A program made the position numbers and the translations under genes. From positions 104,100 to 168,099 of the IMG/VR virus record IMGVR_UViG_3300035212_002004: a stretch of DNA of 64,000 nt; one strand, 5' to 3'. This stretch comes from a virus (lineage: Duplodnaviria > Heunggongvirae > Uroviricota > Caudoviricetes). Of the stretch, positions 1-57,240 are shown piece after piece. Positions within the stretch are counted from its first letter, which is position 1; every line of letters begins with the position of its first letter. Below the pieces are notes generated by a model, which saw only the letters and a list, made by a program, of their open reading frames with translations, was not told the origin of the DNA and did no database searches.

Positions 1-1346
1 TGTTTCCAAACAAAAGTTCTTAATTCATCTAATAACCTTTTAGATTGTATTGTAACTGATTTTTCTTGTATATATGAAACTAATTTTGAAATACATAGTG
101 GGCGTGTTTTTTGAGAAGTTGTAAAACCCGGTATCATACCTTGCCCATTTTCCATTCTAGCTAATTGATTTTCATTAGCACCCATTGTTGTATCAGCTTT
201 AGAAGAGTAGTATAAATTTCTATATCCTCTTTCTATTAAATGTTCTAGAACACTCCATCCTATATTAGCATTTTCTACTACTAATAAAGCATCATTATAC
301 TCTGTTGCTATAGCAAATAAAATATTAGCGTAATCTTTTGTTTGAACTTGTGCTTTATATTCGGCTACTTGTTTAGCGGCTTCAATATCAAATATATGAA
401 AAGCTGAATAATCACTTCCATCACCTCTAGCGACGTCAGCTACAACCATATAAGTTTTTGTATAATCAGGTATTTCCCATATCCATAAAGCCCCTTCTAT
501 TCCTCTTCTTTCTATGGGATCAGATGTGAAAGCAGATTCTAAGAAATTAAGCATATCAGGCTCAATTACAGTGTCTCCAGATGTACTAAAATCACAATCA
601 CACTCTTGTGCGGCGTGACGTAATCCTAAAATTTCATTTTGGTCATCTCTCCATTGTTGATTTCGTTCAGGATGAACAGTCCAAGGTAAAGATAAAGGAA
701 CAAATTTATTTTCTTTATTTTGTGCTTTAGTAAAGGATTTATGAAACCAATTACCTGTACCATAAGGTGTAGATAAAGCAAGACATTGTCCTCCAGTAGC
801 TAAAGTTTGTTGTGCAGAAGCAAAAATTTCATCAATACCTTCAATAAAAGCTGCCTCATCAATAATAAGAAAAGAAACGGCTTCTGATCTACCCGCATCC
901 GCTGTTGCGCCTACTGCTTTAATCTGTGAACCGTTATTTAACTTTAATGAAAGTTTATTATTCTCTGATGGTTTATCTCCAGATTTTAACCATTTAGGTA
1001 AACTATCATAAGCAAAACGTACTTTAGTAACCATATTCTTAGCAGTTTCCTGCTTAGTAGCTATACATAAAATATTTTTGTCTTTATTAAATAACATTAA
1101 CCATAAAGCATAAGCTGATGCTAATGTTGATATACCTAATTGGCGGGATTTATTTATAATTGTATACTCATTCTTTTGTATTTGATATAGTACTTTTTCT
1201 TGGAATGGATATAAATTAAATTGGATTCTACCTCTTTGTGGATGCTGAATCCAATAATATTTCTTCATGAAGTACACCGGATCTTGAGCACATCTTACCC
1301 ATTCTTGTTTTATAATCTCTTTTAAAGGGAGTTGTTGTTCACTCAT
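1..1346 (-). CDS. terminase large subunit (T4 gp17-like), N-terminal ~448 codons; 3' end lies beyond window start
   Basis: Minus-strand ATG at 1346..1344 (MSEQQLPLKEIIKQEW...). Open frame runs to position 1. Translation contains YPFQ...KSRQLGIST Walker-A-like terminase ATPase motifs and DCDF...VIEPD nuclease-domain start. Confidence 0.8.
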   Translation of the reverse strand, partial: MSEQQLPLKEIIKQEWVRCAQDPVYFMKKYYWIQHPQRGRIQFNLYPFQEKVLYQIQKNEYTIINKSRQLGISTLASAYALWLMLFNKDKNILCIATKQETAKNMVTKVRFAYDSLPKWLKSGDKPSENNKLSLKLNNGSQIKAVGATADAGRSEAVSFLIIDEAAFIEGIDEIFASAQQTLATGGQCLALSTPYGTGNWFHKSFTKAQNKENKFVPLSLPWTVHPERNQQWRDDQNEILGLRHAAQECDCDFSTSGDTVIEPDMLNFLESAFTSDPIERRGIEGALWIWEIPDYTKTYMVVADVARGDGSDYSAFHIFDIEAAKQVAEYKAQVQTKDYANILFAIATEYNDALLVVENANIGWSVLEHLIERGYRNLYYSSKADTTMGANENQLARMENGQGMIPGFTTSQKTRPLCISKLVSYIQEKSVTIQSKRLLDELRTFVWK

Positions 1347-1977
1347 TTATTATATATTTGAATATGTAACCATGTTTTGTTTTTTTATAGTTTCCCTTTA
1401 AAACTTGACTAATAGTACTTTTATTTATATCCATTTCTTTAGAACATTCTGTTATACTATTAAAAATTTTTCCTGTATTAATACAAATTATAGGTTTAAA
1501 ATTGTTTATTATAGATTTGCCTTTCTTTAATTGAGAAATTACATTTCCAAATCCTTCAGGTTTAGGTTTACCTTGATTAGCTAAACGTTTTTTTTGTTTT
1601 GTTTCTTCACTTTGTGATTGTCCTTTAGGCCAACCATTTTTACCCATTCTACCTTGAGAAATATTTTGTTTAGTTTGTTCAGATCTAGGCCCTACTCCCT
1701 TATCAAATAAATCACTAAATAAGGCTTTACTCCATCCATACTTATTAACAAATTGTGTTTTATAAAAATTCTCTCTCTCATTAAGCAATTCTAAAGAACA
1801 TTCTTCTAATATTTCAATTATATGGTTGTTAAATCCATGTTTATTTAATGAGTTAAAAATTTGCGGTTGCTGTTTACATTCTAATCTTTTATAAGATTGA
1901 AATCTATTATTTAAATTAATAGATTGCCCTATATAAACTTTATTTGTTGGTGATGTTATTTTATATATTCCTATCAT
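1339..1977 (-). CDS. GIY-YIG homing endonuclease (free-standing; NUMOD-like repeats in C-terminal half)
   Basis: MIGIYKITSPTNKVYIGQS = GIY-(x10)-YIG motif. Basic repeat-rich C-terminus. Stop TGA overlaps terminase ATG (ATGAGTGA). Confidence 0.85.
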   Translation of the reverse strand: MIGIYKITSPTNKVYIGQSINLNNRFQSYKRLECKQQPQIFNSLNKHGFNNHIIEILEECSLELLNERENFYKTQFVNKYGWSKALFSDLFDKGVGPRSEQTKQNISQGRMGKNGWPKGQSQSEETKQKKRLANQGKPKPEGFGNVISQLKKGKSIINNFKPIICINTGKIFNSITECSKEMDINKSTISQVLKGNYKKTKHGYIFKYIINE

Positions 1978-3642: not shown

Positions 3643-3888
3643 TTATTTTGTTTGTTCTATAAAAGATATAAAATCTTTAATAATTTCTTGTTTAACCGGT
3701 GTTGCTTTCTTATAAGCTTCGCTTAATATAATATTGATATTTGTGGTATCCAAAGACTCTATAAGAAGTTGTTTAAGAGGAGTTAAAGCACTTTCAGCTA
3801 AAATATACTCTGTATCTTCTCCATAATCCTCAATATCATTTAGATACAACTCTATATACTCTTGTAATTTATTTTGAGAAGTATTCAT
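3643..3888 (-). CDS. hypothetical acidic protein
   Basis: 81-aa ORF. Confidence 0.5.
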   Translation of the reverse strand: MNTSQNKLQEYIELYLNDIEDYGEDTEYILAESALTPLKQLLIESLDTTNINIILSEAYKKATPVKQEIIKDFISFIEQTK

Positions 3889-4351
3889 ATATTATCTTTT
3901 TAACATGTTTAACAATTTCTTTAATATTTTTAATTTGGGAATTTAACCATTGCATACGTTCACCCATACGTTTTCCTGCCATAGGAGTTTCAATATTATT
4001 TTCTGGGATGTATTTAAGTAAAGGTTTCATATATTCCGCTCCTGTCAAGCATATAAAATGGTCTTTTTCAGGATTAATACCGTAGGATTTCATTTGTTTT
4101 GCTACTTCAGCACCCCAAGTTTCTTTTTCATCTTTAGGCATCTCTTTAAGAGTTTTATCATAAGGTTCTAAAACCTTAGTTAAAGGTACTAGATAATGCT
4201 TAGCAGATAAAATAAACATTTTATCAGGTTTAAGCGACTTACCGTACTCTAAAGTTTTTTTGAATGTAGGCGACGCAGAATATAAGTCTTGTGCTTGAGA
4301 CGGCTTATCTAATTTAGATTTGGTGCAACTTAATAGTACTATAGTAGACAT
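3869..4351 (-). CDS. hypothetical protein
   Basis: 160-aa ORF. Confidence 0.5.
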   Translation of the reverse strand: MSTIVLLSCTKSKLDKPSQAQDLYSASPTFKKTLEYGKSLKPDKMFILSAKHYLVPLTKVLEPYDKTLKEMPKDEKETWGAEVAKQMKSYGINPEKDHFICLTGAEYMKPLLKYIPENNIETPMAGKRMGERMQWLNSQIKNIKEIVKHVKKIIYEYFSK

Positions 4352-4383: not shown

Positions 4384-5070
4384 TTAAGAAAATTCATTAT
4401 ACCATGCATCATCAATCCATTGAGATTTAATCTTTTTAACAATAGTAAAATATTTTTTCCAATCTATAGCACCAATATCTTGAAAATGTTTGTACTGTTT
4501 ACCTACTCTATTATCATAAGCATATCTTGATTTATGACTTAAGGTAATTGATGGATGATTTACTTTAAGTTTTACTCCATTATAATCAACATGAACTATA
4601 TCTCTAGATTTGACATATTGACTATTAAAAAAATCTATTGTATATTCTATATGACCATTATCACCTGATGGTGTAACCCATTCTGTAGTATGTTTATACA
4701 ATTGAATTAATTCTTTTTGGGTAAAATGTTTATCGGTTTTATTTTCACCTTTCATTTTACCTCCACCTGGCATTTCTGTAGTCTCATAATCACCTCTACC
4801 TATTACATAATTTAAATTAAAGAAATCTTTAAAAACTAGTAATTCATCTTCAGTTAATGGTTCAGTTAGACTAAAATCTATATCAGGTTTACGATTTTTA
4901 AAATCATACTCTACAATACCCATTACATATAGACCTAAACTGCCACCTAAAATTAATTTATCACTTAAATTAGTTAATGGAAGAATAATATCATCATATT
5001 TTTGAGGTAAAATATTAACAGTGTTTGGTTTATAACCGTTATGTATTCTACTTAATAGATCTTTAAACAT
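4384..5070 (-). CDS. hypothetical protein; possible minimal nucleotidyltransferase fold (GS...DxD)
   Basis: ILGGSLGLYVMGIVEYDFKNRKPDIDF resembles the hG[GS]...DhD Pol-beta NTase signature. Weak. Confidence 0.3.
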   Translation of the reverse strand: MFKDLLSRIHNGYKPNTVNILPQKYDDIILPLTNLSDKLILGGSLGLYVMGIVEYDFKNRKPDIDFSLTEPLTEDELLVFKDFFNLNYVIGRGDYETTEMPGGGKMKGENKTDKHFTQKELIQLYKHTTEWVTPSGDNGHIEYTIDFFNSQYVKSRDIVHVDYNGVKLKVNHPSITLSHKSRYAYDNRVGKQYKHFQDIGAIDWKKYFTIVKKIKSQWIDDAWYNEFS

Positions 5071-5072: not shown

Positions 5073-6251
5073 TTAATTGATTTTAATTTTAGTACCAGGT
5101 AATTCGTTGTTTATTTTTGATTTTGAACTATGAACCCATAATATAGGTTTTAAAGGTTTAGTATCAGGTGAAGAACATTCTCCATCTGTTAAATAAATTA
5201 AATTATCAAATTCATTTCTATGTTCAACTAAATACTGCATTACAGGTTCAAAACTAGTACCACCTCTACCTTGAACTGATAAGTCTTCTAAATTACCTTT
5301 ATATTCATAAACTCTTTGAATATCAGCGTCACATTCTACTACTGTTACTTTAGTACCTGTTTTATAAATGTGGTATATTTCATTAAAAAATTCTGCTAAT
5401 TCACTATTAGAAACTGAACCTGAAGTGTCAATTGCAACTAATGTTGATTTTTTAAGTTTAATTTTTAGAGCAGGATTACCATAAAAACGTTTATTAGGTT
5501 TACGTCTTGTTTTCTTAGTAAATATCTTATTTGATGTATTACTAAATCTACGTAAATAAGCTTTCCAATCTAATACAGGTTCTTGTACTTCAAATAAAGA
5601 ACTAATATAATCCTTCATTTCTGATGGTATTAAGCCTCTATCTTTAGCACGTTTTTCTAATTGATTTGCTATTTCTTTTAATTGGTGATCAACTTGTTTA
5701 CCTATTAATTTACGTTCTGCCTCACTCATCCCTTCCATTGCTTCCCACAACTCATGAATATCAATTTCCATACCATTCATGAAATCAGCAAAGTCTCCGT
5801 CCGGATTATTATCTAACTCGTCTTGAAGTTTATCATAATAATATTTAGTACCTTGTTTAGGGAGTAAATTTAAAGGTTTATAAATACCTTCCTCAAATTC
5901 TAATCCATCCCATTTTTCACCTTTATATTCGGCTTGAATATATTGATTAATTTCTAAATCAGCAGCAACATTATATAATTTCTTATTAGGAAATCTATCA
6001 AAATGTTGTAAATGAAAAAATGCAATATGAAGTAATTCATGTTTTAGGACACCTAATTTAGTGTTCTCATCTAATGAACTCCAAAAATCAGGATTGATAC
6101 AAAGTTTAATGTTTATGTTATCTGGTGTAACACAAGCAGTAGGAATAGATGTAGTTAATTCCTTGTTGAGTGAAATTAAAAATAAACCATAAAATGGTTC
6201 TTTTAACATTAAACTTTTAGAAAATTTAGTAACTTCGTGATAGATAGACAT
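5073..6251 (-). CDS. putative metallopeptidase domain + von Willebrand A (VWA) domain protein (DUF2201-like)
   Basis: HELLH (HExxH) in N-terminal half. C-terminal VAIDTSGSVS MIDAS-type DxSGS motif. Confidence 0.65.
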   Translation of the reverse strand: MSIYHEVTKFSKSLMLKEPFYGLFLISLNKELTTSIPTACVTPDNINIKLCINPDFWSSLDENTKLGVLKHELLHIAFFHLQHFDRFPNKKLYNVAADLEINQYIQAEYKGEKWDGLEFEEGIYKPLNLLPKQGTKYYYDKLQDELDNNPDGDFADFMNGMEIDIHELWEAMEGMSEAERKLIGKQVDHQLKEIANQLEKRAKDRGLIPSEMKDYISSLFEVQEPVLDWKAYLRRFSNTSNKIFTKKTRRKPNKRFYGNPALKIKLKKSTLVAIDTSGSVSNSELAEFFNEIYHIYKTGTKVTVVECDADIQRVYEYKGNLEDLSVQGRGGTSFEPVMQYLVEHRNEFDNLIYLTDGECSSPDTKPLKPILWVHSSKSKINNELPGTKIKIN

Positions 6252-6290
6252 AACCTTTTTTTTTAATTAATAATATTTAAATATAAGTTT

Positions 6291-7394
6291 TTAAGATTTA
6301 AGAGCCAAACTAATTTCTGATAATATTAATGAATTAGGATCTATAGATAACATTATGTTGATTTTATCTTTAACATAATCCGTAATAATTTCTTTAGATT
6401 CTTCATTATTTTGATGAACTTTGTATAAACTTAAACTAAATTTTACCCAGTCTTCTTTAAAATTAATATTTTTAGTATTATAATATTTTATGATACTTTT
6501 AAAACTTCTATGGTTATTTATACTTTTACCACTACCCCAATTAAATTTATCTACATGTTTATTTAAAAGAAGTGCAATTTTAAGTGAATCTTTTTCAATG
6601 TTAACATTACTTAACATTTCTAATGCCATATTGATATTATCCTGATCTAAACTGTTAAACATGCTGTCTAATGTCTTTAGATAATCTTTATCTAATTCAA
6701 TTCCATCACTATTAAGTGTTTCTAGAATATCATCATCAAATGCTATTTTAACATTAGGATTTTTAAAAACATATTCTAATAAACTATAGGTATCAATTAA
6801 ACTTCCTCCCCAAGTTTCTTTACATTTGTAAAATTCTAATGAAGTTTGTTTAGATATAAATTCTTTAAGAGTAAAAGATATAGGATTATTTAAATAAAAA
6901 TCATTATGTATAAAAAGATGATCTTCATTTGTGAATTTCATACGATCTTTAGGGAGAAGACTATCCTTACGATTATTATAACCAGTTTTATCACTATCCG
7001 GAGTTATCTCTTTTAATAATTGATAATTTTCAGTAGTTTGATCAATTTTAAAATAACTTTCTAACGATAATTTTTTAATTTGTTTATATAATTCAGTTAT
7101 ATAACTTTTATTAACAATTATATTATCACATTGTTCAACTCTTGATGTTTTTTTACCATTAGTTGTTTCAAAATATTCTTTTAACTTATGTCTAGGGACA
7201 TTAGATAATTTTCCTGTATAAGTTTTTCCAGGTAAATTAACATTTTTAGGCTGATTAATTATATTGTCTAAGAAAGTTAAATAATTAGTTCTTTCTTGTT
7301 CTGTAAACATAATAATATCAGATGCCCCGTCCCAATAAGTGTAATGCAATTTATTATTTTGAGTTGTTAAAATAATAGAATTTGGATATAACAT
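6291..7394 (-). CDS. hypothetical Asn/Lys-rich protein embedded in MoxR/VWA module
   Basis: 367-aa ORF between VWA protein and AAA ATPase. Confidence 0.5.
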   Translation of the reverse strand: MLYPNSIILTTQNNKLHYTYWDGASDIIMFTEQERTNYLTFLDNIINQPKNVNLPGKTYTGKLSNVPRHKLKEYFETTNGKKTSRVEQCDNIIVNKSYITELYKQIKKLSLESYFKIDQTTENYQLLKEITPDSDKTGYNNRKDSLLPKDRMKFTNEDHLFIHNDFYLNNPISFTLKEFISKQTSLEFYKCKETWGGSLIDTYSLLEYVFKNPNVKIAFDDDILETLNSDGIELDKDYLKTLDSMFNSLDQDNINMALEMLSNVNIEKDSLKIALLLNKHVDKFNWGSGKSINNHRSFKSIIKYYNTKNINFKEDWVKFSLSLYKVHQNNEESKEIITDYVKDKINIMLSIDPNSLILSEISLALKS

Positions 7395-7465
7395 AACCTT
7401 TGTTTTTAATTAATAATACTTAAATATAAGAATAATAAAAGGGGAGGCCAAGCCTCCCCATATTT

Positions 7466-8641
7466 CTATTTCATTATAAACTCAACTAACGATTTGTCCA
7501 TCATCATAACTTTAAATTTAGATGGATTATTATTATAAACTGACTTTACCATGTTGTAACAAATGTCAGTTGTAAATACTTTTTCATTAACAATTTTAGA
7601 TAACCTTTCAGTTACTGTTTTTTCTATTGGATTTTCTTTAGAAAATAAATCTAAGAAATTGATTATTCTAGTTGATAAAGTTGATGCAATATCTGCTCTA
7701 TATTTATCTTCTTTACCTGTTAATGATTTTAAAGTATTTAATACATACTGTTCATCCTGACTCATTATATTTTCAGGCGAAATCATTTTATCTAATTTAT
7801 TATTAATAAACATAGTAAATAAACTACTAAATTCTGGTCCTACTGAACCTTCACCTACCATTTGTATAAGTGGTAATGAATCATTAAAATTAGAAATAGA
7901 AGATATTGAGTTAAAAAACATAGATATACTTCTACTGTTTATATCTTGTGTAACTAATTCTGGGTGCATTAATAAGAAGTTAATACATCTACCATCAATT
8001 TTATTTTCTTCAGCCCATTTAGCCCAACAATCAATATCAAATTTTAATTGTACTGAAATAAAACGTGTTTTTTGTGCGTTATCTATACTATTAACTAAAT
8101 AATCTCCGTTATCCGGGTTAGCAGTTAATATAATATGCCAATCTTTTGGTAAAGACCAACTAATATATTGTTGTCTATCAATAAGTTCCATCACGGCTTG
8201 TATAAACCTAATATCAGCTCTATTCCAGTCATCTAATAATAGAATCCCACCATTTGTTTTGTTAGCTATCCATTCAGGTGGACAATAACTCATTCTATTT
8301 TGACCAGTCGAACTATAACCTAGTTTAAGATACTCATCAAATGCATGTTCATCTACCCAAACTGTTTCTTTATCATCTTTTACTTCAAACTGACGAATTG
8401 GAAAACCTACTAAATCACCAATTTCTTCAATTTGAGCTAAATTTAACTTAACAAAATTTAAGTTTTGTTCTTTAGCTAATTGAATAATAGCAGATGTTTT
8501 ACCAATACCTGATTCACCTATTACTTCAGTTGATACAGGTGTTTTACCTTGACTTTGTAAAAATCGATTGTTCTCAATAATGTGAGATAAGAAAGTTTTT
8601 AATTCGGTTACATTAACCGATACTAGATTTTGTTTTGACAT
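7466..8641 (-). CDS. MoxR-like AAA+ ATPase (AAA_5)
   Basis: Walker A GESGIGKTS. Walker B LLLDDWNRAD. Size and arrangement typical of MoxR partners of VWA proteins. Confidence 0.75.
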   Translation of the reverse strand: MSKQNLVSVNVTELKTFLSHIIENNRFLQSQGKTPVSTEVIGESGIGKTSAIIQLAKEQNLNFVKLNLAQIEEIGDLVGFPIRQFEVKDDKETVWVDEHAFDEYLKLGYSSTGQNRMSYCPPEWIANKTNGGILLLDDWNRADIRFIQAVMELIDRQQYISWSLPKDWHIILTANPDNGDYLVNSIDNAQKTRFISVQLKFDIDCWAKWAEENKIDGRCINFLLMHPELVTQDINSRSISMFFNSISSISNFNDSLPLIQMVGEGSVGPEFSSLFTMFINNKLDKMISPENIMSQDEQYVLNTLKSLTGKEDKYRADIASTLSTRIINFLDLFSKENPIEKTVTERLSKIVNEKVFTTDICYNMVKSVYNNNPSKFKVMMMDKSLVEFIMK

Positions 8642-8676
8642 AACTTTTATTTATAAATTAATAATACTTAAATATA

Positions 8677-8988
8677 CTAAGGATAAGAGAAGAGGCCAAA
8701 CAAATCGTCTTGAAAGGCTAAATAAGCTTCTTGAACTTTTTTCCAAGCAGGCTGTTGTTTTAAATTAATATAAAAACTGCTTATATCTTTATGACTTTGA
8801 GTTGCTTTATTATTTATTATTAAAGTTAAAGACAATTCTTCTATATAATGACAAGTATATAAATCATCAGTATCTGAGTTTAATATAATTTCACAAGCTA
8901 AGCCTATATCATTTCCTTCTGTTGAATGTACCATATCAAGTAATTGTTGATACATTTCTTCATCTATTTTGTGAATTTTAGAATACAT
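8677..8988 (-). CDS. hypothetical protein
   Basis: 103-aa ORF. GGGAGGCcaaGCCTCCC hairpin downstream of previous gene. Confidence 0.5.
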   Translation of the reverse strand: MYSKIHKIDEEMYQQLLDMVHSTEGNDIGLACEIILNSDTDDLYTCHYIEELSLTLIINNKATQSHKDISSFYINLKQQPAWKKVQEAYLAFQDDLFGLFSYP

Positions 8989-9044
8989 AACCTTTTTGTT
9001 TAAAAATATAAAATAAAAAATGGGAGGCCAAGCCTCCCTTTTAT

Positions 9045-10364
9045 TTAATTAAATTTTAATATGTCCTCTGCGACATAAATTCCTTGTGCACCACTTACTG
9101 TTATACCTCTAGCGGAAAGTGCATCACCAACGAAATGTACGTTTGGATACTTGGTCAGGGCTAGGTTGGTATAATCAACAAGTGGCTCAGGAGATAGATA
9201 TTTTACTTCAGGTATGTACATACCCCAATCGTCTTTTAATGTAGGGAATATTTTTTTCATTCCATCAATGAAATCATCAATGTATCCAAAATACCCTTCA
9301 AATACTTCTCTTACTTCATCCATTCCTAATCTATCTATTTGATAGGCTTCTACAAAATCACCTTCTGAAGTGTATGAAGGTACTCTAGATGGTGAGTAAT
9401 ATAATCCTTTATTATCAACTTGTAATATTTTAACTAAATTTCTGCTCCAAGTAAATGGATCTTCGATTCCGTTTACTTCCATTATGATACCGAAATTAGT
9501 CATATCGTTTCTATACTTTTCATCTTTCTTAGCATGACCATTGTATGAGTAGTTTCCGTATGTTTCTTCTACCGCAACATAAGCAGCATTGTTATTAGTG
9601 CAGAATGAACGTAATGATACTCCTTTATCATCGAATTTTCTATATAACTTAAAGTCATATGATACATCAATTAGTTTTTGGAAATGTTTTTGTGGTGCTT
9701 CAAAACGAACACCAATTTGTACTGATTTAGGTTCAGTTGGTAAGTCGTATTGTTCGGCTAAAGATTTACCAAAGTCAATACCTGATTTTCCAACACCAAA
9801 TATGAGTTCATCATAGGACAATCTTACTTCTTGTTGATATTTATCTTTAGCTCTAATAAACTTAGTATCAAAATCAATAGAATATACTTTAGTTTCCCAT
9901 TCAAAATGAACTCCATTATCAACTAAATATTGATACCAGTTTTTATTAATTTTATGCAAGTAATCAGTTCCTATATGATAAACACCAAATAAACGTAAAC
10001 CAAAGTAGGGTTTAATAAAGTCAGGTTCTTCTGTAGGATTTGAATACATTATTTTAGAAGGATCAGGGTGAAATCTTCTCCACATATCGATAGATTGATC
10101 CATTAATTCATATGCTTTATCTTTACCACAATATTTTGAAAGCTGACCACCAATCATATGATGGTATGTAAGTTTCCCATCTGAAAATCCTCCAGCTCCT
10201 GCGAACCCTTCCATAACTTCATTAGGCTTTCTATTATAAGGGTCTTTACCCATATCAATAATAGTAATCAAATTGCCAGGATATCCATTGTCAATTAGTT
10301 TAGTAGCAGCACTAATTCCTGATACTCCACTACCTACAATAACAATTTTTTTAGTTTGTTTCAT
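9045..10364 (-). CDS. FAD-dependent oxidoreductase (COG2509-like FAD-dependent dehydrogenase)
   Basis: N-terminal Rossmann GxGxxG (IVIVGSGVSGISAA). GFAGAGGFSDGKL motif. C-terminal GDA..RG typical of FAD enzymes. Confidence 0.7.
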   Translation of the reverse strand: MKQTKKIVIVGSGVSGISAATKLIDNGYPGNLITIIDMGKDPYNRKPNEVMEGFAGAGGFSDGKLTYHHMIGGQLSKYCGKDKAYELMDQSIDMWRRFHPDPSKIMYSNPTEEPDFIKPYFGLRLFGVYHIGTDYLHKINKNWYQYLVDNGVHFEWETKVYSIDFDTKFIRAKDKYQQEVRLSYDELIFGVGKSGIDFGKSLAEQYDLPTEPKSVQIGVRFEAPQKHFQKLIDVSYDFKLYRKFDDKGVSLRSFCTNNNAAYVAVEETYGNYSYNGHAKKDEKYRNDMTNFGIIMEVNGIEDPFTWSRNLVKILQVDNKGLYYSPSRVPSYTSEGDFVEAYQIDRLGMDEVREVFEGYFGYIDDFIDGMKKIFPTLKDDWGMYIPEVKYLSPEPLVDYTNLALTKYPNVHFVGDALSARGITVSGAQGIYVAEDILKFN

Positions 10365-10399: not shown

Positions 10400-10425
10400 A
10401 AGAAGGCTCCTTTACGGAGCCAAAC
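10400..10425 (-). terminator. GGCTCC-tttac-GGAGCC stem-loop (member of recurring intergenic hairpin family)
   Basis: Same GGCTCC/GGAGCC stem recurs near 11955, 21262, 55707 and 61975. Confidence 0.5.
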
Positions 10426-11919: not shown

Positions 11920-11976
11920 AACATGTTCGTTAAATTAGTGAAATATAATAAGGCTCCTTTAGGGAGCCAAATTTAT

Positions 11977-46488: not shown

Positions 46489-46520
46489 GAGGGGAGTTAA
46501 CTCTTAACCCCCCTCACCCA
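46489..46520 (-). terminator. GC-rich stem-loop (GGGGaGTTAA-ctc-TTAACcCCCC)
   Basis: Immediately downstream of 46529..46921 stop. Confidence 0.4.
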
Positions 46521-46528
46521 CTATATTA

Positions 46529-46921
46529 TTACTCTGCTTTCGGTGCGGCTGGTCTACCTCTTTTAAGTGTACCCGCGGCGCGTCTTGCTTCCAATTCCAC
46601 TTTGCGTTTGTATGCGGCGCTTTCAGGATTTGGTTTTCTACCTAATGGCAGTGTACCCATTAGTGATAATCTAATTTGTCTGTTACTATCTTCAACAATT
46701 GGGCGACCACGTCTCAATTCACCTGATGCCCTTCTAGCCTCTAATTCTTGTAGGCGTAACTGACGATTACTTGAAGCATTCACCGGGCGACCTTTTCTAA
46801 CTGTTACACCATGTGTTGCGGCTAGTAGTGATTCCAAATAATCTGTCTTGCATTGGTGGGCTGGTTTCTCAGTTGCTAACCCTAATTCTTTTACTTTTGC
46901 AATAATTTCAATTCTGTTCAT
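46529..46921 (-). CDS. DNA-binding protein: Rho_N/HeH-like N-terminal motif + two AT-hook (R/KGRP) repeats; GC-elevated gene
   Basis: RIEIIAKVKELGL... HeH-like. Internal repeat LQELEARRASGELRRGRPI / KVELEARRAAGTLKRGRPA. Gene GC visibly higher than flanks. Confidence 0.55.
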   Translation of the reverse strand: MNRIEIIAKVKELGLATEKPAHQCKTDYLESLLAATHGVTVRKGRPVNASSNRQLRLQELEARRASGELRRGRPIVEDSNRQIRLSLMGTLPLGRKPNPESAAYKRKVELEARRAAGTLKRGRPAAPKAE

Positions 46922-47199
46922 AACATTTTACTTTTTTAATTAAACTTAATTTTTTAACTTAATAACACTTAAATATACGAAATAATTTTTAATGAGCCAA
47001 GCCGTGTTTAAAAATCGTTTTTAATCATTTCATTTATTTTATGTCTTAACTCCCTTAACATTACACTTGTTAAAGTGGTTCTGTCAAATTGTGCTTCGTG
47101 TAGGTGGTTTATTAATTCCCTTATCACAATAAATTTTTCATTTACTAATTGATTTTCTTTAGCCATTTCTAACTCTGTCATAACATAATATTTTTAAAA

Positions 47200-47415
47200 T
47201 TATACTGAAATATACGAAATTATAATTGGATTGCCAAGCAATGTATATACTTTTTTATTAGTGAAAGGAACGGACTCATGACTGAACAAAAGTGCCCATA
47301 CCTGCCTTGGTAGTTCACCCGACCCATCTAGTGTTTCCACATGCGTCACCCCATTTTTCACCCCCATTACCCCTAATACACCTTCGGAATCCATATTAGA
47401 GGTGGGGATGTACAT
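47200..47415 (-). CDS. hypothetical protein (GC-elevated)
   Basis: 71-aa ORF. Confidence 0.4.
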   Translation of the reverse strand: MYIPTSNMDSEGVLGVMGVKNGVTHVETLDGSGELPRQVWALLFSHESVPFTNKKVYTLLGNPIIISYISV

Positions 47416-47576
47416 TATACAACCTTAGGTAATTTCACCTTATTCACCACTTTATCAATAGCATTTTTGATATCTAATACCTCGTCCACCATCATTTTAG
47501 TAGTGTCATACCCTAGTTTTTGTAACATTTCATCAATAATCATTACTTTATCTATCAACCCTAATTCTGTTTTCAT
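47415..47576 (-). CDS. small hypothetical protein (53 aa), not in ORF track
   Basis: ATG 47576 preceded by promoter box. Stop overlaps next ATG (TAATG). Confidence 0.45.
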   Translation of the reverse strand: MKTELGLIDKVMIIDEMLQKLGYDTTKMMVDEVLDIKNAIDKVVNKVKLPKVV

Positions 47577-47715
47577 AACACATATTATTTAACTTATTAA
47601 TACTTAAATATACGAATTATTATTTTACTCTCCTAACACACTCGTCGGGGAGTTATTTGTGTTTTGTCCCCGACGTCACTTGTGTTATCGCTGATATTAA
47701 TTTTCTTGTTTTGTA

Positions 47716-48015
47716 TTATGCAACTAACACTTTTGGTTCATTGAACCATATTATATCAACACTTCCTTCTCTCCAATTATCACTAATCATTACCCCATCT
47801 AATAGGTTATGTTCTTCATGGTTCATGTTATACCACTTCGAGATATAATTATATTTTTCTCCACATGCAAATCCTATTGGTTCACCCCCACACATACTCC
47901 CTATTCTATAACCCATTTCTCTCAATTGTTTCTCAGCTTCATAATGTGAACTAAATGTACCTTCTACTTTCACATTCACACTTTTAACTACTTCTCTACC
48001 TAAATACTTTTCCAT
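47716..48015 (-). CDS. hypothetical protein
   Basis: 99-aa ORF preceded by promoter box. Confidence 0.5.
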   Translation of the reverse strand: MEKYLGREVVKSVNVKVEGTFSSHYEAEKQLREMGYRIGSMCGGEPIGFACGEKYNYISKWYNMNHEEHNLLDGVMISDNWREGSVDIIWFNEPKVLVA

Positions 48016-48033
48016 AACATAATATTTTTTAAA

Positions 48034-48053
48034 TTTATACTTAAATATACGAA
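48034..48053 (-). promoter_or_regulatory. representative copy of the recurrent promoter-like box (minus strand TTCGTATATTTAAGTATAAA; -10-like TATAAT/TATAAA ~17 nt before ATG)
   Basis: One of ~30 copies between 45.3 and 62 kb, e.g. near 46969, 47603, 48339, 48722, 49057, 49481, 50005, 50183, 50722, 51382, 52195, 52723, 53026, 53703, 53940, 54777, 55505, 56567, 57221, 58565, 58950, 59915, 61418, 61960. Each sits 35-45 nt upstream of a minus-strand ATG. Confidence 0.6.
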
Positions 48054-48158
48054 TTAATTTTTAACAGTCCTAATATTAATCCATCAAAGCTATACAAGCT
48101 CCTAAACCTACTACAATTACTATACCTGCTATAAATCCTATTATCATAATATATGTTT

Positions 48159-48314
48159 TTAAAGTACGTTAAGGAATTTAGATAAAATCACTACCCAAAC
48201 AAAACAAATAATTGCAACTGCATAGGGGCCAAATTCAGTTGATAATCTAAGAGATGTGATTGAATTGATCAACCAGATGAAGAAGAACTTGATGTTTCTT
48301 AATGACTTTTTCAT
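48159..48314 (-). CDS. small membrane protein (51 aa), not in ORF track
   Basis: ATG 48314 preceded by promoter box. Hydrophobic. Confidence 0.4.
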   Translation of the reverse strand: MKKSLRNIKFFFIWLINSITSLRLSTEFGPYAVAIICFVWVVILSKFLNVL

Positions 48315-48482
48315 AACATTTTATTTTTAAATTTATACTTAAATATACGAAATAAATTTAATACATCCTAATACCCTATTTAACTGGATTTAGTAAGGTC
48401 ATACATGAATACAGCCCAAGCAGTTATTATTACTACCTTTAGAATATTAGCCCATTGTTGTTGTGATATCTTTCTCATATTT

Positions 48483-48698
48483 CTATTCTTGTACATCACA
48501 TATACCTTGTGATAGGATATAATCATATAAACAATCCATTTTTCTTTCAAACGATAGATTAATTATATAACTTTGTATTATATGACTTTGTTTCAAGAAC
48601 TCAGTAATAACATTATCATCTAATAGAGACAAGTCAACATGACCATAATTCTCTCTAAAATACATTCTAACATCTTCAACTGTTTGATCTAATTTCAT
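48483..48698 (-). CDS. hypothetical protein
   Basis: 71-aa ORF with promoter box. Confidence 0.5.
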   Translation of the reverse strand: MKLDQTVEDVRMYFRENYGHVDLSLLDDNVITEFLKQSHIIQSYIINLSFERKMDCLYDYILSQGICDVQE

Positions 48699-48770
48699 AA
48701 CACTTTATTTTTTAAAATTATACTTAAATATACGAATAAAAAATTAAGGGGCCTAATACATGGCCCCTTT
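48696..48770 (-). repeat. promoter + stem-loop intergenic cassette, copy A (near-identical to 49029..49102)
   Basis: ~75-nt near-identical repeat including the AAGGGGCC-n8-GGCCCCTT hairpin and promoter box. Confidence 0.7.
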
Positions 48771-48773
48771 AAA

Positions 48774-49031
48774 TTAATCTTCAAATACTATTAAATCTTC
48801 AAATTTGTATTTAACAGTCACTTTCTTGTTCATTACAAATGTGAATCCGGTAAAACCTACTCTACCTATTTTTGATACATTTGCATGATGTCTTGAATAT
48901 ATTACTATGTCATCAATAGACGATCTACTTTCTTTCATGATACATTCATCATATTTAAAAGTTTCAGCTCCTTTATAATCTATTCCTTTCACTTTAAACG
49001 ATACTCCTGATTCAAATTGCTCTTTTGTCAT
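48774..49031 (-). CDS. hypothetical protein
   Basis: 85-aa ORF. Confidence 0.5.
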   Translation of the reverse strand: MTKEQFESGVSFKVKGIDYKGAETFKYDECIMKESRSSIDDIVIYSRHHANVSKIGRVGFTGFTFVMNKKVTVKYKFEDLIVFED

Positions 49032-49102
49032 AACACTTTATTTTTTAAAATTATACTTAAATATACGAATAAAAAATTAAGGGGCCTAATACAAGGCCCC
49101 TT
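49029..49102 (-). repeat. promoter + stem-loop intergenic cassette, copy B
   Basis: Differs from copy A by one loop base. Confidence 0.7.
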
Positions 49103-49108
49103 ATTTAA

Positions 49109-49456
49109 TTACTCATTATCTTCATCTTCCTCTAATGGTTCAAAAGCTTCTGTTAAACTATTCTCAATACAATCTCTAATTACATCAAAATTGATTGGAA
49201 CATCTGTCACTTCAATTCTTTTATCATAATTTAATTCAAACTCAACATCATCAAAACAAATAATATTGTTTCTACACGTTGATTCTTCTTCAATTGCCTC
49301 TACAATACTTTGAGCAATCTCTCTCAATTGAGTGACTGATAATTTAGGCTTCACTTGTTCTTCTTCAATCTTCTCTATAAGATTGACTACTTGTTCTGCT
49401 GAATAGAATCCAGGCATTTGATCTCTTAATAAATCAATCGTTTGCGATTTTGTCAT
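49109..49456 (-). CDS. hypothetical acidic protein
   Basis: 115-aa ORF. Confidence 0.5.
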   Translation of the reverse strand: MTKSQTIDLLRDQMPGFYSAEQVVNLIEKIEEEQVKPKLSVTQLREIAQSIVEAIEEESTCRNNIICFDDVEFELNYDKRIEVTDVPINFDVIRDCIENSLTEAFEPLEEDEDNE

Positions 49457-49522
49457 AACATTTTATTTTTTAAAATTATACTTAAATATACGAATTTTAT
49501 TTTAATAAACCTAATACACTAT

Positions 49523-49819
49523 TTATCTACTTTTTACAGACTCAATTGCTTCATGACCTGAATTAATCATTGCAATTACTCCTCCCCACATATTCTCATC
49601 AGCTTCCCATTCAATATCATGAGGCTTATGTTTCATTCCCCAATTACTTAATGCGAATCCGTTACCACTCATTTTGAAGTCACCTTCTTCATTTTTCTTA
49701 AAAGTAATGTAATGGATATTATCACACATACTCGCTACTGTTTTGAAAATTACTTCTCTTGCACCTTCTTTAATAACTAATTTAGGTGGATTTACTCTTA
49801 ATTCAACATACTTGCTCAT
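49523..49819 (-). CDS. hypothetical protein
   Basis: 98-aa ORF. Confidence 0.5.
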   Translation of the reverse strand: MSKYVELRVNPPKLVIKEGAREVIFKTVASMCDNIHYITFKKNEEGDFKMSGNGFALSNWGMKHKPHDIEWEADENMWGGVIAMINSGHEAIESVKSR

Positions 49820-49840
49820 AACATTTATTTTTTAATAAGC

Positions 49841-49975
49841 TTAATACTGGTAACATTTTAATAATCTTTTCATTACTTGATATTCAGTCATGTTTGGATA
49901 TAATACCCTCCAACTATTTCTTATACGTTGTATATGTACTCTAGTTTCGAAATGTGCTCTTGACTCTACTTTCAT
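49841..49975 (-). CDS. small hypothetical protein (44 aa), not in ORF track
   Basis: ATG 49975 with promoter box upstream. Confidence 0.35.
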   Translation of the reverse strand: MKVESRAHFETRVHIQRIRNSWRVLYPNMTEYQVMKRLLKCYQY

Positions 49976-50033
49976 AATATATTTTTTTAATTACCCTTAA
50001 ATATACGAAATAAAATTTAATAAACCTAATATA

Positions 50034-50153
50034 AATTTAATTTCTCCCCCAACGTTTCATAGAATGTTTAGTTGAAGATGGTTTATGATTACAATGGTTA
50101 GAGGCACAATTAACTAATATTAAACTTACCAAAATTATAATTAATACTTTCAT
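50034..50153 (-). CDS. small secreted/lipoprotein-like peptide (39 aa: MKVLIIILVSLILVNC...), not in ORF track
   Basis: Signal-peptide-like N-terminus ending in Cys. Promoter box upstream. Confidence 0.35.
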
Positions 50154-50289
50154 AATATTTTATTTTTTAAAATTATACTTAAATATACGAATTTTATTTT
50201 AATGAACCTAATCAATGTAAATAGCCCCTTTACGGGGCCATTCACGAGTATAATTAAAAAATATAATTGGTTATGAAACAATTATGTTG

Positions 50290-50478
50290 TTAATACTTGG
50301 CGCAATTCTTTCCATCTGCACTTCTGTATAAGGTGTATACTAACGCCTCTTTTAATTCTGTTACCTTACAATCCTTCATATTCCAGCCTCTTTCCTTAAC
50401 ATCTTTAAATAATGTTTCAGTTGTAGTTCTGATTTGATTGAATTTATCTATGGTTGTATTTATTACTTGTAATGTCAT
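50290..50478 (-). CDS. hypothetical protein
   Basis: 62-aa ORF. Confidence 0.4.
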   Translation of the reverse strand: MTLQVINTTIDKFNQIRTTTETLFKDVKERGWNMKDCKVTELKEALVYTLYRSADGKNCAKY

Positions 50479-50492
50479 AATTATGTTTAGTT

Positions 50493-50696
50493 TTAGTTGA
50501 ATAATTTATTTCCCATCTCCATGAATTTTGTGAATTCCTCTACACCCATCTCTTTAATAAGACTTGTGTTTAATATATGATACTGCTTATTTAATTCATT
50601 TCTCTCTTCTTGAGATTCATATTCCTTATTGTTAATTTTCCAATTAACATCTAATAAATCACTAAATAATTCTCTTGCTTTATCTGTTTTAAACAT
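50493..50696 (-). CDS. hypothetical protein
   Basis: 67-aa ORF with promoter box. Confidence 0.45.
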   Translation of the reverse strand: MFKTDKARELFSDLLDVNWKINNKEYESQEERNELNKQYHILNTSLIKEMGVEEFTKFMEMGNKLFN

Positions 50697-50866
50697 AACA
50701 ATATATTTTAAATTAATAATACTTAAATATACGAATTTTATTTTTATAATCCTAATACTCTATTTAAAAATAAAAATTACCCTTCTGGAGCTTCACCAGC
50801 CTTCTAGTATACTTATACCTCTCAGCTAAGAGTCAGTACGAGCTTTTTACTTTGGATAATTTTTAG

Positions 50867-50925
50867 TGGAGTGAGAGGAATCGAACCTCTTGCCTAAACA
50901 GTCTTGCCGTAATCGAACCACTCCA
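50867..50925 (-). ncRNA. 59-nt tRNA-like element: perfect 7-bp acceptor stem + canonical T-arm (AGAGG-TTCGATT-CCTCT), no recognisable D or anticodon arm
   Basis: Hand-folded. 28 nt between acceptor and T-arm contain a GGCAAGA direct repeat, not an anticodon hairpin. Confidence 0.35.
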
Positions 50926-50971
50926 GGACCTGCAGATCCAAATAATAATGACTACCAAAATTATTATTTTG

Positions 50972-51056
50972 ATGTTGTGACAGGATTCGAACCTGCATCT
51001 TTATGTCGCCCAGTATTTGTACTTACAACTTGCGTCTACCATTCCGCCACACAACA
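50972..51056 (-). tRNA. 85-nt type-II-length tRNA-like gene (acceptor, D-arm GCG-GAATGGTAGA-CGC and T-arm GCAGG-TTCGAAT-CCTGT canonical; anticodon arm not resolved by eye)
   Basis: D-arm resembles bacterial tRNA-Leu/Tyr/Ser class. Variable-arm hairpin CAT-aaag-ATG. Anticodon stem could not be paired. Confidence 0.5.
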
Positions 51057-51097
51057 AACTACATTCTAGGAATGCAAGAGAATATATAACAATTATT

Positions 51098-51358
51098 TTA
51101 AAAACATGATTGTATGATATCATCATGCCAATACCCAATATCATCATTTATAATTTCTAATTGAGCTTCAGTCATTTCCACTCCATCATAATCAGCACTT
51201 TCAATATAAGCGTCACAAAAATCTGGGTAATCATCAAAATCAATTCCACCAAATATTATATTATCAATTAAACTGTAATCCAAATCCAATTCTTCAGATT
51301 CAGGAAAGTTATCAGGATTATTTGAATTGAAATTATTATCATTATAAGTGTCTAACAT
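51098..51358 (-). CDS. hypothetical very acidic protein
   Basis: 86-aa ORF. Confidence 0.5.
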   Translation of the reverse strand: MLDTYNDNNFNSNNPDNFPESEELDLDYSLIDNIIFGGIDFDDYPDFCDAYIESADYDGVEMTEAQLEIINDDIGYWHDDIIQSCF

Positions 51359-51403
51359 AATACTATTTTTAAATTAATAATACTTAAATATACGAAATAA
51401 AAT

Positions 51404-52171
51404 TTAATAATTATAACCTTTTTTAATTTTAGAATAATCTCTTGAATCAAAAAGATTAGTTACATCTTTTATTTTACCATTTGATAATAAATCTATTAAC
51501 TGATACTTGATAAATTCTGCATCTTGGGCTAAACTACATTCAATATAATTTGAAATCCTTCCATCCCATGAATTCTGTATTAGGAACTCATCTGTGAATT
51601 CAAAACTATGTTGACCTGTTTCATTATTATAGGAAGCTGAACTATAGTTTAATTCATCTATTTTAGAAAGTAAGAACATGTAAGACATAAAAGAAGGACT
51701 TCCTATTACGTACCAACTATCTCCATCATTAAATGCTCTATACTGTATTCTTTGGATAGCTCTAAACATCTCACCTATCTCTGTTTTGCAAGGTCCTGAT
51801 TTAGGTATGTTATCTTCTTCAAATTTTTTAGTTAATGCTTTCAATTCATCTGAAACTTTGAACTTAGGTTCATATATATTATGACCACCCCTTAGACCTA
51901 TACTACCTCCTGATAATCTTTTATACTCTCTATGAATATATTCATCCATAGTTAGTGATATATATTCAGAAATATCAACTAAACCTGCTTGCTGTCCATT
52001 CCATTCAATACGTACTCCTGCTCTTTTAGCAATCATTAATTCTAACGAATCCTTACCCTTACCACCCCAGTTACCATCTTGAAAATAGAAATTTTGTAGA
52101 TCTAAATCTTTTAAATCTTGAACAACTCTTAGAGCAAATCTTAGTTTTGTAATATTTGATACTTGTGTCAT
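51404..52171 (-). CDS. hypothetical protein
   Basis: 255-aa ORF with promoter box. Confidence 0.55.
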   Translation of the reverse strand: MTQVSNITKLRFALRVVQDLKDLDLQNFYFQDGNWGGKGKDSLELMIAKRAGVRIEWNGQQAGLVDISEYISLTMDEYIHREYKRLSGGSIGLRGGHNIYEPKFKVSDELKALTKKFEEDNIPKSGPCKTEIGEMFRAIQRIQYRAFNDGDSWYVIGSPSFMSYMFLLSKIDELNYSSASYNNETGQHSFEFTDEFLIQNSWDGRISNYIECSLAQDAEFIKYQLIDLLSNGKIKDVTNLFDSRDYSKIKKGYNY

Positions 52172-52393
52172 AACCTTTATTTTTTAAATTATACTTAAAT
52201 ATACGAATTAAAAATTATAAAGCCAAATTAATATTCATCATCGTAACCTAATTCATAATCGAACTCATCCTCAATTACATCAAAATCTTTAATTAAAGCA
52301 TCTATATCTTCATCTTTAATAATTTTATAAACATCAGGTTCTTGTTCTGTGTCTAATTTGTCCCAAACCGATTTTACTTGTTTAGCCATTGTT

Positions 52394-52603
52394 TTATTTT
52401 TTAAAAATTACTCTTTTTACTCTCATCCCATCCTTATCAACATATAATTGAGGGCATACAACTGCGTTCTCAAATGATTTGTTAATAAATTGTTGTACCA
52501 TCTCAGAATCGTTAGAAGTGAATTCAGCATAGTTTTCCCAAATGACTAATACTCCATTTTGATCTAATGTAAAATCATCACAAATATAAGCTGTAAATAT
52601 CAT
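52394..52603 (-). CDS. hypothetical protein
   Basis: 69-aa ORF. Confidence 0.45.
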   Translation of the reverse strand: MIFTAYICDDFTLDQNGVLVIWENYAEFTSNDSEMVQQFINKSFENAVVCPQLYVDKDGMRVKRVIFKK

Positions 52604-52760
52604 ATCTATTTATTTTTGTTTAAATATTCAATTAATTCTTGTGATAAAACACCTCCAGCATACATTAACCATAATTCTGCTAATCTTTCTTTTGACATAA
52701 CATTTTATTTAAAATTATACTTAAATATACGAAATTAATCTATAAAATCAAATACCTTTA

Positions 52761-53006
52761 TTAGTAATAAAATTGAAAATTATAATTATCTCCTACACTT
52801 CCTAAAGTTACAGTTTCATTTTGCAAATCATCATTCCAAATACAAGTATTATAAATTTTAATAAGAGTTACCTCTGACTCACTTTTATAAGTCACTTCGT
52901 AATTATTCCAACTAATAGTATTAGTAGTTAGTTTTCCTTTAAAACCTGTTTCATTTTCAATTGCTTGATTGAAAAAATTTACAACCTGTTCATCTGATAA
53001 TTTCAT
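52761..53006 (-). CDS. hypothetical protein
   Basis: 81-aa ORF. Confidence 0.45.
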   Translation of the reverse strand: MKLSDEQVVNFFNQAIENETGFKGKLTTNTISWNNYEVTYKSESEVTLIKIYNTCIWNDDLQNETVTLGSVGDNYNFQFYY

Positions 53007-53057
53007 AACATTTTATTTAAAATTACACTTAAATATACGAAATCTTATTTAATAAGC

Positions 53058-53378
53058 CTATTCATTTATTTCTTTTATTATTTGGTCTATATAGGCTTGT
53101 GCTTCTTTATAATCCTGCTGCATTTGTTTTAATACTTTAACAGGTATTTTAGAGGTAGTAAATGGTTTATCTTTCAGGAATGTATCATTTATGCTCCAGT
53201 TTTTATTCTCCTCTAAATAAGTGTGGAGTTCAGTTTGGAATGATATAAAATCCTCTACATACTCCTCTTCACTCAACCTCTCCTTATAAAAAGTTGAGTG
53301 AAAGAATTGTACTAATTCAGCTTTAGATAAGTTTGCTTTTGAGGCAATTAATTTAGCTATCTCTAATTTAGTCAACAT
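53058..53378 (-). CDS. hypothetical protein
   Basis: 106-aa ORF. Confidence 0.5.
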   Translation of the reverse strand: MLTKLEIAKLIASKANLSKAELVQFFHSTFYKERLSEEEYVEDFISFQTELHTYLEENKNWSINDTFLKDKPFTTSKIPVKVLKQMQQDYKEAQAYIDQIIKEINE

Positions 53379-53679
53379 AATTACCTAATTCTCTTAATAC
53401 TTCATATTGAGCATCACTTGAAATACTTCTTGAATTAGACCCAATATGCCATTCAATTGTCTCATCCAAATTTAATTCTCTATATTCCTTCCAATCATAA
53501 ATTGCGAATACGTTACCTTCATCAGTTTCTAAAACCCATTCAAAATTTACTTTATCTTCTCCTGTATTATAACCATAATCAGGTTCACCAAATACATTTG
53601 TTAATTGGTTAACACTTGCTTTAAATGTCACATCTTGGAATGAGGTTCCATTTGTACTTTGATTTGTTTTAGTTGCCAT
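53368..53679 (-). CDS. hypothetical protein
   Basis: 103-aa ORF. Confidence 0.5.
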   Translation of the reverse strand: MATKTNQSTNGTSFQDVTFKASVNQLTNVFGEPDYGYNTGEDKVNFEWVLETDEGNVFAIYDWKEYRELNLDETIEWHIGSNSRSISSDAQYEVLRELGNYVD

Positions 53680-53732
53680 AACCTTTTACTTTTTTAATTA
53701 ATAATACTTAAATATACGAAATTTATTTAATA

Positions 53733-57237: not shown

Positions 57238-57240
57238 ATT

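Follow-up and report, generated by a model that had tools for sequence, protein, structure and literature searches.

What is a 367-amino-acid protein without an annotated family doing between the genes for a MoxR-type AAA+ ATPase and a metallopeptidase with a von Willebrand factor A (VWA) domain, and is it part of the same system? The question is raised by a 64,000-nucleotide stretch of DNA from a tailed virus, which we refer to as the window (positions 104,100 to 168,099 of IMG/VR record IMGVR_UViG_3300035212_002004). Its source is a large, low-GC phage, a myovirus; the GC content of the window is ~24-33%, nearly every gene lies on the minus strand, and a T4-like baseplate wedge protein is encoded. 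A MoxR ATPase paired with a metallopeptidase-vWA protein has already been described in jumbo phages (Iyer et al. 2021, PMC7824862). Within the lineage studied here, the protein in between, which we call mid, proved genetically inseparable from the pair, and we consider it highly probable that the three genes make up one functional module. The trio consists of the following ORFs (open reading frames), each with an ATG start:

7466..8641, minus strand: MoxR/midasin-type (AAA_5) AAA+ ATPase, 391 aa, recognised from motifs and profiles
6291..7394, minus strand: mid, the third component, 367 aa, unannotated family
5073..6251, minus strand: DUF2201_N zincin-like metallopeptidase fused to a DUF2201 VWA-like domain, 392 aa, recognised from Pfam matches and motifs

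The tight packing reported in the initial annotation of this DNA is exact, with spacers of 71 nt (7395-7465) and 39 nt (6252-6290). The two outer proteins are also what it had taken them for, namely a MoxR-type ATPase with a GESGIGKT motif and a protein joining an HExxH peptidase-like domain to a VWA domain with a metal-ion-dependent adhesion site (MIDAS). Profile searches (AAA_5, VWA, DUF2201_N) had been proposed there as the check. For the VWA protein, DUF2201_N (residues 8-256, 63.8 bits against a cutoff of 23.2, 2.5e-17) and, C-terminal to it, DUF2201 (residues 272-380, 71.8 bits against a cutoff of 26.4, 7.4e-20) both pass, and the protein stops ~12 residues past the DUF2201 match. The ATPase scores 21.5 bits against Pfam AAA_5, just short of the 22-bit cutoff; it matches phrog_1297 ('ATPase') at 1.7e-37, and its family profile finds midasin AAA modules at E=3e-16 and, weakly, CobS. 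By these profiles and its motifs the ATPase belongs to the MoxR/midasin AAA_5 clade. The Walker A motif GESGIGKT occupies residues 42-49 and recurs as G[DE]SGIGKT in all 64 unique relatives; sensor-1 N175 and the arginine finger R193 are invariant in an 11-sequence alignment that includes distant phage homologs; and AQKTRF, an A-x-x-x-R-F motif that is a MoxR-like signature alongside 'NR', is present in 63 of the 64. Single-sequence searches of PDB sequences found no match for either the ATPase or the VWA protein.

The VWA protein can be described as a putative zincin metallopeptidase joined to a MIDAS VWA domain. Its HExxH motif is HELLH (residues 71-75), found in 51 of 58 unique relatives, some of which are partial ORFs (the shortest 55 aa), and this may explain those without the motif. 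The MIDAS is complete (DTSGS at 275-279, GGTSF at 330-334 and LTDGE at 354-358), and D[TA]SGS and [LF]TDG are conserved in 57/58 and 58/58 relatives, respectively. In phrog_1314 and in RefSeq (e.g. NC_021782.1, NC_019516.2, NC_023719.1) this DUF2201 metallopeptidase-VWA family is named 'HNH endonuclease'. Judged by the Pfam matches and the HExxH/MIDAS motifs, which give it no support, that label is a propagated annotation error.

Linkage was surveyed across 80 IMG/VR loci whose ATPase is 74-99% identical to that of the window, loci with enough flanking sequence being counted as informative. All three genes lie on one strand in each of the 66 informative loci. Their order is ATPase > mid > VWA at 29 loci, mid > VWA > ATPase at 25 and VWA > (228-aa gene) > ATPase > mid at 12, and these three orders are cyclic permutations of one circle. 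Relatives are plentiful among IMG/VR viral contigs, and the association extends to distant members of the mid family (profile E 1e-12 to 1e-18): the five for which upstream flank was available all have the order DUF2201 > ATPase-sized gene (391-408 aa) > mid. The ATPases of these distant loci are 51-57% identical (two aligned), and genes for a PD-(D/E)XK nuclease, a Toprim primase, AAA_24, ThyA and RNase H are found in their neighbourhood.

The known phage pair (COG0714 plus COG3864; phrog_1297 plus phrog_1314) provides the comparison. TBLASTN against GenBank phages gave 503 records with a match to the VWA protein and 27 with a match to the ATPase, the former including N4-like Schitoviridae, S-TIM5-like cyanophages, Bacillus phage G, RaK2-like jumbo phages, and Thermus and Moorella phages; the pair is also known from Bacillus phages AR9/PBS1. 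It consists of the same two proteins, with a zincin HExxH N-domain and a MIDAS VWA C-domain in one of them, encoded by adjacent and co-oriented genes. However, in the known pair the two genes overlap or are contiguous, no other gene separating them, as seen in S-TIM5, in a Moorella phage and in an N4-like Salmonella phage, whereas in the lineage of the window a third gene is always attached. The N4-like pair sits in a region with dUTPase, replication-initiation and exonuclease V genes.

The ATPases differ as well. Walker B of the window protein reads LLLDDWNR (residues 134-141, window 8219-8242), so that Asp-Asp replaces Asp-Glu; the Mg-binding Asp and the NR signature are kept, and the catalytic Glu is replaced by Asp in 64/64 relatives and at loci L090, L092, L093 and L094. 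In addition, an insertion of ~45 residues follows helix 2 (residues ~70-120). Every mid-linked ATPase that we examined has both the Asp-Asp and the insertion, whereas the mid-less ATPases of the S-TIM5, Moorella and N4-like pairs (n=3) have Asp-Glu and lack the insertion. No other indirect evidence points as strongly to a physical partnership as this co-variation with mid. Judging from the motif, the Asp-Asp may make for slow or switch-like ATP turnover.

We conclude that mid is a new protein family, folded and conserved. Scans against Pfam, PHROG and NCBIfam assigned mid to no family, its profile had 0 matches at E<=10 among PDB sequences, and neither DNA nor TBLASTN searches of 50,697 GenBank phages, made with the region and with mid, returned anything; apparently no cultured relative carries it. 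Mid itself is on record on a 168-kb contig, in line with a large phage. A 90%-clustered database holds 222 members, without Pfam domains and all labelled 'hypothetical' except for one evidently spurious entry (queuine synthetase), and at 50% clustering there are at least 618 representatives (E<=1e-3), nearly all of 330-430 aa. Sub-threshold matches to iREC, GIY-YIG, ThiI_fer and Alp7A_C among relatives of mid (55 members, then 10) were scattered over differing regions and were dismissed as noise. A 353-aa Moorella phage gene lying downstream of DUF2201 was considered as a distant relative of mid and rejected (hhalign probability 0.2%).

An AlphaFold model of mid built from a 55-sequence alignment (predicted local distance difference test, pLDDT, 84.3; predicted template modelling score, pTM, 0.72) suggests a BRCT-like alpha/beta domain combined with a HEAT/ARM-like solenoid, with the following parts from the N-terminus:

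N-terminal beta unit, predicted
residues ~55-120, nt 7035-7232, minus strand: BRCT-like alpha/beta domain, predicted
residues ~159-219: second alpha/beta unit, predicted
residues 219-225: acidic FDDDILE motif
residues 220-349, nt 6348-6737, minus strand: HEAT/ARM-like helical domain, predicted

The C-terminal part matches HEAT/ARM repeats. The likeness of residues ~55-120 to the BRCT domains of TopBP1/Rad4, BARD1, PARP1, XRCC1, NAD-dependent ligases and ligase subunit B of phage PR1 lies in the predicted beta-alpha-beta-beta-alpha-beta topology and in a basic cluster (G-K...S...P-R-H-K) at the place where BRCT domains bind phosphate. Six residues of this domain are invariant in the family (Y59, G61, P67, R68, K72 and T83), and in the model we infer that they form a basic patch at that position; FD[DE]D at residues 219-222 is invariant as well. 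On the other hand, mid has no BRCT profile match, none being found by Pfam in mid or in the 55 family members even at E<=5, and the canonical Ser/Thr-Gly...Lys phosphate triad is not clearly conserved. A fold search of BFVD with mid reached BRCT proteins only at E ~1, and other three-layer alpha/beta folds scored nearly as high. With moderate confidence, we regard the modelled domain as BRCT-like in fold and mid as not a member of the BRCT family. The same BFVD/Foldseek search returned three uncharacterised proteins of 363-396 aa as relatives of the model, A0A8S5QMV2 from a crAss-like virus and A0A8S5TL70 and A0A8S5TKB2 from Podoviridae sp., with E values of 8.5e-9 to 2.3e-5 and 9-14% identity to mid.

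Within the module mid evolves fastest. Across the loci the ATPase has a median identity of 77% to its window counterpart, the VWA protein 58% and mid 31%, and the ratio of nonsynonymous to synonymous substitution rates (dN/dS) against the closest relative is 0.04, 0.10 and 0.16 in the same order. Since its ratio is 0.16, mid is coding and under purifying selection. Against locus L009 the ATPase is 93% and the VWA protein 91% identical while mid is only 40% identical, and the DNA identity, 81-98% outside mid, drops to 35-74% precisely at the limits of that gene and rises again in the VWA gene; inside mid, two islands stay conserved, one over the BRCT-like core and one over the first helical repeats. 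The identities of mid in the database step from 81% to 45% with none between. Given this discrete gap and the replacement at L009, mid occurs in discrete allelic forms, swapped among genomes that are otherwise alike. The initial annotation called mid a low-complexity protein, which is contradicted by the confident model and the purifying selection. Its description of mid as an embedded unknown holds in that no family is annotated, and undersold a conserved third component that persists through permutations of gene order and into distant phages. In relatives the middle ORF, whose absence or non-coding state had been raised there, is present, intact and coding.

Each gene of the trio is preceded by a promoter-like cassette in the window, as follows:

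8642..8699, minus strand: promoter-like cassette 5' of the ATPase gene (-35-like TTGGCC, 17-nt spacer, TATATT, conserved extension TAAGTATTATTAAT)
7395..7465, minus strand: ATPase-mid spacer, 71 nt, a composite of a hairpin and an overlapping sigma-70-like promoter that resembles the early promoter stem-loop elements (PeSLs) of T4-type phages
6252..6308, minus strand: 39-nt spacer and 3' end of mid, with a promoter-like cassette for the VWA gene

The core of the ATPase-gene cassette lies at 8657-8676 and ends 15 nt before the ATG. In the ATPase-mid spacer, positions 7441-7459 hold a GC-rich hairpin, GGGGAGGCTTGGCCTCCCC with a T-run after it, that resembles a terminator. Its loop/arm contains the -35 element TTGGCC of the mid promoter, which continues with TATATT (core 7409-7428) and the ribosome-binding site (RBS) AAAGG. 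The VWA-gene cassette has its -35-like TTGGCT inside the coding end of mid; TATATT follows, and the core (6266-6285) ends 14 nt before the ATG. Calling the spacers A/T-rich, as was done at first, therefore falls short, as they hold a GC-rich hairpin and a repeated promoter-like cassette. What the three genes have in common is TTGGC[CT], 17 nt, TATATT, TAAGTATTATTAAT, an A-run, an RBS and the ATG. Allowing <=3 mismatches, the full cassette is found 16 times where chance predicts 0, and each copy lies on the coding strand, 12-38 nt ahead of the start of an ORF. The core motif (TTnGG-17-TATATT-TAAGTATTATTAAT-TAAAAA) precedes 25 genes, again with 0 predicted, namely the trio and 22 short ORFs in a dense minus-strand cluster at 46500-61450 that looks like an early or hyperplastic region; it stands in front of no gene of the structural region of the window. 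The structural block covers ~14-46 kb, with the trio outside it. A T4-type late motif, TATAAATA, was also considered and is uninformative in so AT-rich a genome. The exact cassette precedes the trio genes only in close relatives, more distant ones having variants of their own. In most relatives mid starts a few nucleotides past the ATPase stop and cassettes are found only at the ATPase and VWA genes; because mid abuts the ATPase gene there without a cassette of its own, the two are normally co-transcribed.

PeSLs of T4-type phages combine sigma-70-like early promoters with stem-loop terminators, flank adaptive genes and recombine into mini-circles (PMC2839356, PMC4122927). The cassette architecture of the window appears to match them: a GC-rich stem-loop terminator and a sigma-70-like promoter form a composite, and the cassettes recur before many short ORFs and each trio gene and are linked with gene shuffling. 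Excision of a circle and its re-entry at another cassette would account for both the cyclic permutations and the allele swaps of mid, a step that we infer. In contrast to the T4-type elements, the cassette consensus is specific to this phage group, promoter and terminator activity and mini-circles are predicted here, and within the trio the complete hairpin-plus-promoter composite occurs only in the ATPase-mid spacer. Two further observations concern hairpins. Two near-identical intergenic hairpins, GGGAGGCTTGGCCTCCC, GC-rich in a 28% GC genome, lie at 7441-7459 and 9022-9038 (2 matches against 0.01 expected), and this terminator-like pair flanks a 103-aa ORF and the ATPase gene. A second near-identical pair is likewise GC-rich, intergenic and terminator-like (GGCTCC-GTAAA/CTAAA-GGAGCC, minus strand, at 10405-10421 and ~11952-11968).

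As to what the module does, we tentatively favour, at somewhat less than an even chance, an early-expressed three-component machine in which mid guides a remodelling protease. The proposal is modelled on CbbQ/CbbO, NorQ/NorD, RavA/ViaA, midasin and the bacterial MoxR-vWA ternary systems. The ring of AAA+ ATPase subunits would dock the VWA protein, whose MIDAS would clamp an acidic residue of a partner, the candidates in mid being FD[DE]D (219-222) and E259; ATP binding or hydrolysis would remodel the bound complex, and the captured protein would be cleaved by the fused zincin domain. In such a machine mid would be a specificity subunit, adaptor or client, its conserved cores (the BRCT-like pocket and the first helical repeats) holding partners or a phosphate/DNA ligand and its variable surfaces contacting a fast-evolving target. 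That target would most likely be a host or phage protein associated with DNA, perhaps a defence factor, encountered early in infection. Virion assembly, host protein remodelling and a defence or counter-defence role were the candidates named in the initial annotation; a host- or DNA-directed target is favoured over virion assembly because of the early-type promoters and the replication/recombination neighbourhoods.

The closest parallel in working is with the MoxR-vWA-centric ternary conflict systems of the VMAP, iSTAND, FtsH and beta-propeller types (Kaur, Burroughs, Iyer, Aravind 2020, PMC7159879). These share with the trio a MoxR-vWA chaperone/co-chaperone core with a dedicated third protein (trio linkage 66/66 and 5/5) and one component that is rapidly diversifying and largely helical, and their proposed logic is that the pair restructures a complex made with the third component (PMC7159879). 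However, mid matches no Pfam family and so is not of the VMAP, iSTAND, FtsH or beta-propeller type; the peptidase of the window is N-terminal to the VWA domain whereas theirs are C-terminal effector arrays; and the module is found in lytic-type phages, without EAD or Death-like adaptor domains, and the ternary systems in multicellular bacteria. The trio thus resembles the ternary systems in working but fits no described subtype. The better characterised remodellers, CbbQ/CbbO (Rubisco activase), NorQ/NorD, RavA/ViaA, BchI/BchD, CobS/CobT and midasin (Rea1), likewise combine an AAA_5-type ATPase with a MIDAS-bearing VWA protein, but none has a zincin fused to the VWA domain or a BRCT-like partner, and their clients are metabolic enzymes or pre-ribosomes. 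A bolder version of the proposal, which we think improbable, treats the trio as an offensive phage equivalent of the ternary conflict systems. In it, mid would be an interchangeable BRCT-like subunit that provides the targeting and steers an ATP-driven unfoldase/zincin protease early in infection onto DNA-bound or phosphorylated host immunity or nucleoid proteins; mid alleles would pass between phages via PeSL mini-circles, which would make the trio a modular and programmable protease against the host.

Several features weigh against the remodelling-protease proposal. The fast evolution of mid could reflect weak constraint instead of an arms race, and dN/dS is unreliable at larger distances owing to saturation of dS. 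The Asp-Asp of Walker B might equally signify a weak or inactive ATPase, the Ser/Thr that precedes the conserved Gly in canonical BRCT domains is not conserved in the mid family, and early expression of the trio would follow from a consensus match only. Phage T4, moreover, makes some morphogenesis chaperones ahead of its late genes. Another possible role of the trio is that of a virion assembly chaperone and maturation protease, the pair folding or assembling tail, fibre or head proteins, the zincin processing them and mid serving as scaffold, a role to which a helical-repeat protein could be suited. A virion-assembly role was proposed for the jumbo-phage pair by Iyer et al. 2021, on the analogy of MoxR/VWA proteins needed for tail development of Acidianus two-tailed virus (PMC7824862), and the window does come from a myovirus with a T4-like baseplate wedge gene. 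The position of the trio outside the structural block, with a cassette common only to the short-ORF cluster at 46.5-61.4 kb, argues otherwise, as do the primase, recombinase and nuclease genes around the trio of distant relatives and the dUTPase/replication-initiation/exonuclease V setting of the N4-like pair. Structural clients are also usually conserved and mid is hypervariable, and we regard assembly as unlikely. We found in the literature no experiment on the function of the phage ATPase/peptidase-VWA pair.

It is conceivable, if rather doubtful, that mid is the client or cargo, an inhibitor or effector that is unfolded, cleaved or loaded by the pair, such as an anti-defence protein matured by it. 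In that case the variety of mid alleles would directly mirror a variety of defence targets in hosts, in keeping with its sharp allele replacement and discrete identity gap. A neighbouring gene often encodes the client in characterised MoxR-VWA systems, namely Rubisco for CbbQO, NorB for NorQD and BchH for BchID. A phage MoxR ATPase, Bas54_0063, is reported to be needed to overcome the predicted defence system DS-28 (bioRxiv 10.1101/2025.11.20.689424), which also favours a client of this kind; yet Vequintavirinae such as Bas54 are absent from the GenBank phage matches of the window ATPase, and the result may not transfer. Profile scans of mid reveal no recognisable effector or enzymatic domain, and there is no evident cleavage site or propeptide; the client explanation moreover overlaps the remodelling-protease proposal, differing only in the role of mid. 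We consider it very improbable that mid is a selfish or moron gene without a link to the pair, brought beside it by chance as a mobile cassette. PeSL-like cassettes flank mid in the window, the GC content dips to 23.6% at 6-8 kb against ~28-30% to either side, the S-TIM5, Moorella and N4-like pairs do without mid, and its alleles are replaced, all of which such a gene would explain. But mid lies next to the pair throughout the informative loci of the clade and in distant phages, follows the ATPase stop within a few nucleotides and without its own promoter in most relatives, correlates in its presence with the derived features of the ATPase, and has no nuclease or transposase motifs, the weak GIY-YIG matches being scattered noise. 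The linkage data speak against mid as a homing or mobile insertion, an idea that we rejected and that is largely refuted.

MoxR/peptidase-VWA genes are among the most widespread conserved phage gene pairs of predicted function only, core in N4-like phages and found in many jumbo phages. What is new here is a lineage in which the pair has an obligatory third component, a fast-evolving protein with a BRCT-like fold by prediction, set in an early-promoter and DNA-metabolism context. Nothing is overturned by this; a widespread phage pair becomes a testable three-part system, and the mis-annotation as 'HNH endonuclease' is corrected. Experimental handles are offered by mid as a candidate specificity subunit, by its natural allele swaps, which can be set against host range, and by the derived ATPase (Asp-Asp and insertion) for interface mapping. 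The analysis also extends modular shuffling of the PeSL type to an uncultured low-GC myovirus group.

Around the module lie the following further genes:

4384..5070, minus strand: possible accessory gene, 228 aa, no family match
3869-4351, minus strand: DUF6884 protein (2.6e-39)
9045-10364, minus strand: FAD/NAD(P)-type oxidoreductase (Pyr_redox_2 at threshold; phrog_12409)
1339-1977, minus strand: homing-endonuclease-type ORF with a GIY-YIG-like N-terminus

The 228-aa gene comes after the VWA gene in 31 related loci, separates that gene from the ATPase gene in 8, and is found in none of the loci with the order mid > VWA > ATPase; it may be an accessory fourth component. The ORF carries GGS-x19-DID, in its sequence recalling minimal Pol-beta-type nucleotidyltransferases. 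The DUF6884 and oxidoreductase genes flank the module and are syntenic with it in the closest relatives. Near the modules of distant relatives there are Endonuclease VII and SegE-type GIY-YIG genes (L089, 802-1305 and 5002-5559; L090, 1738-2172), and homing-endonuclease-type genes of this kind, like the GIY-YIG-like ORF of the window, which was recognised from its sequence, are consistent with a recombination-prone region.

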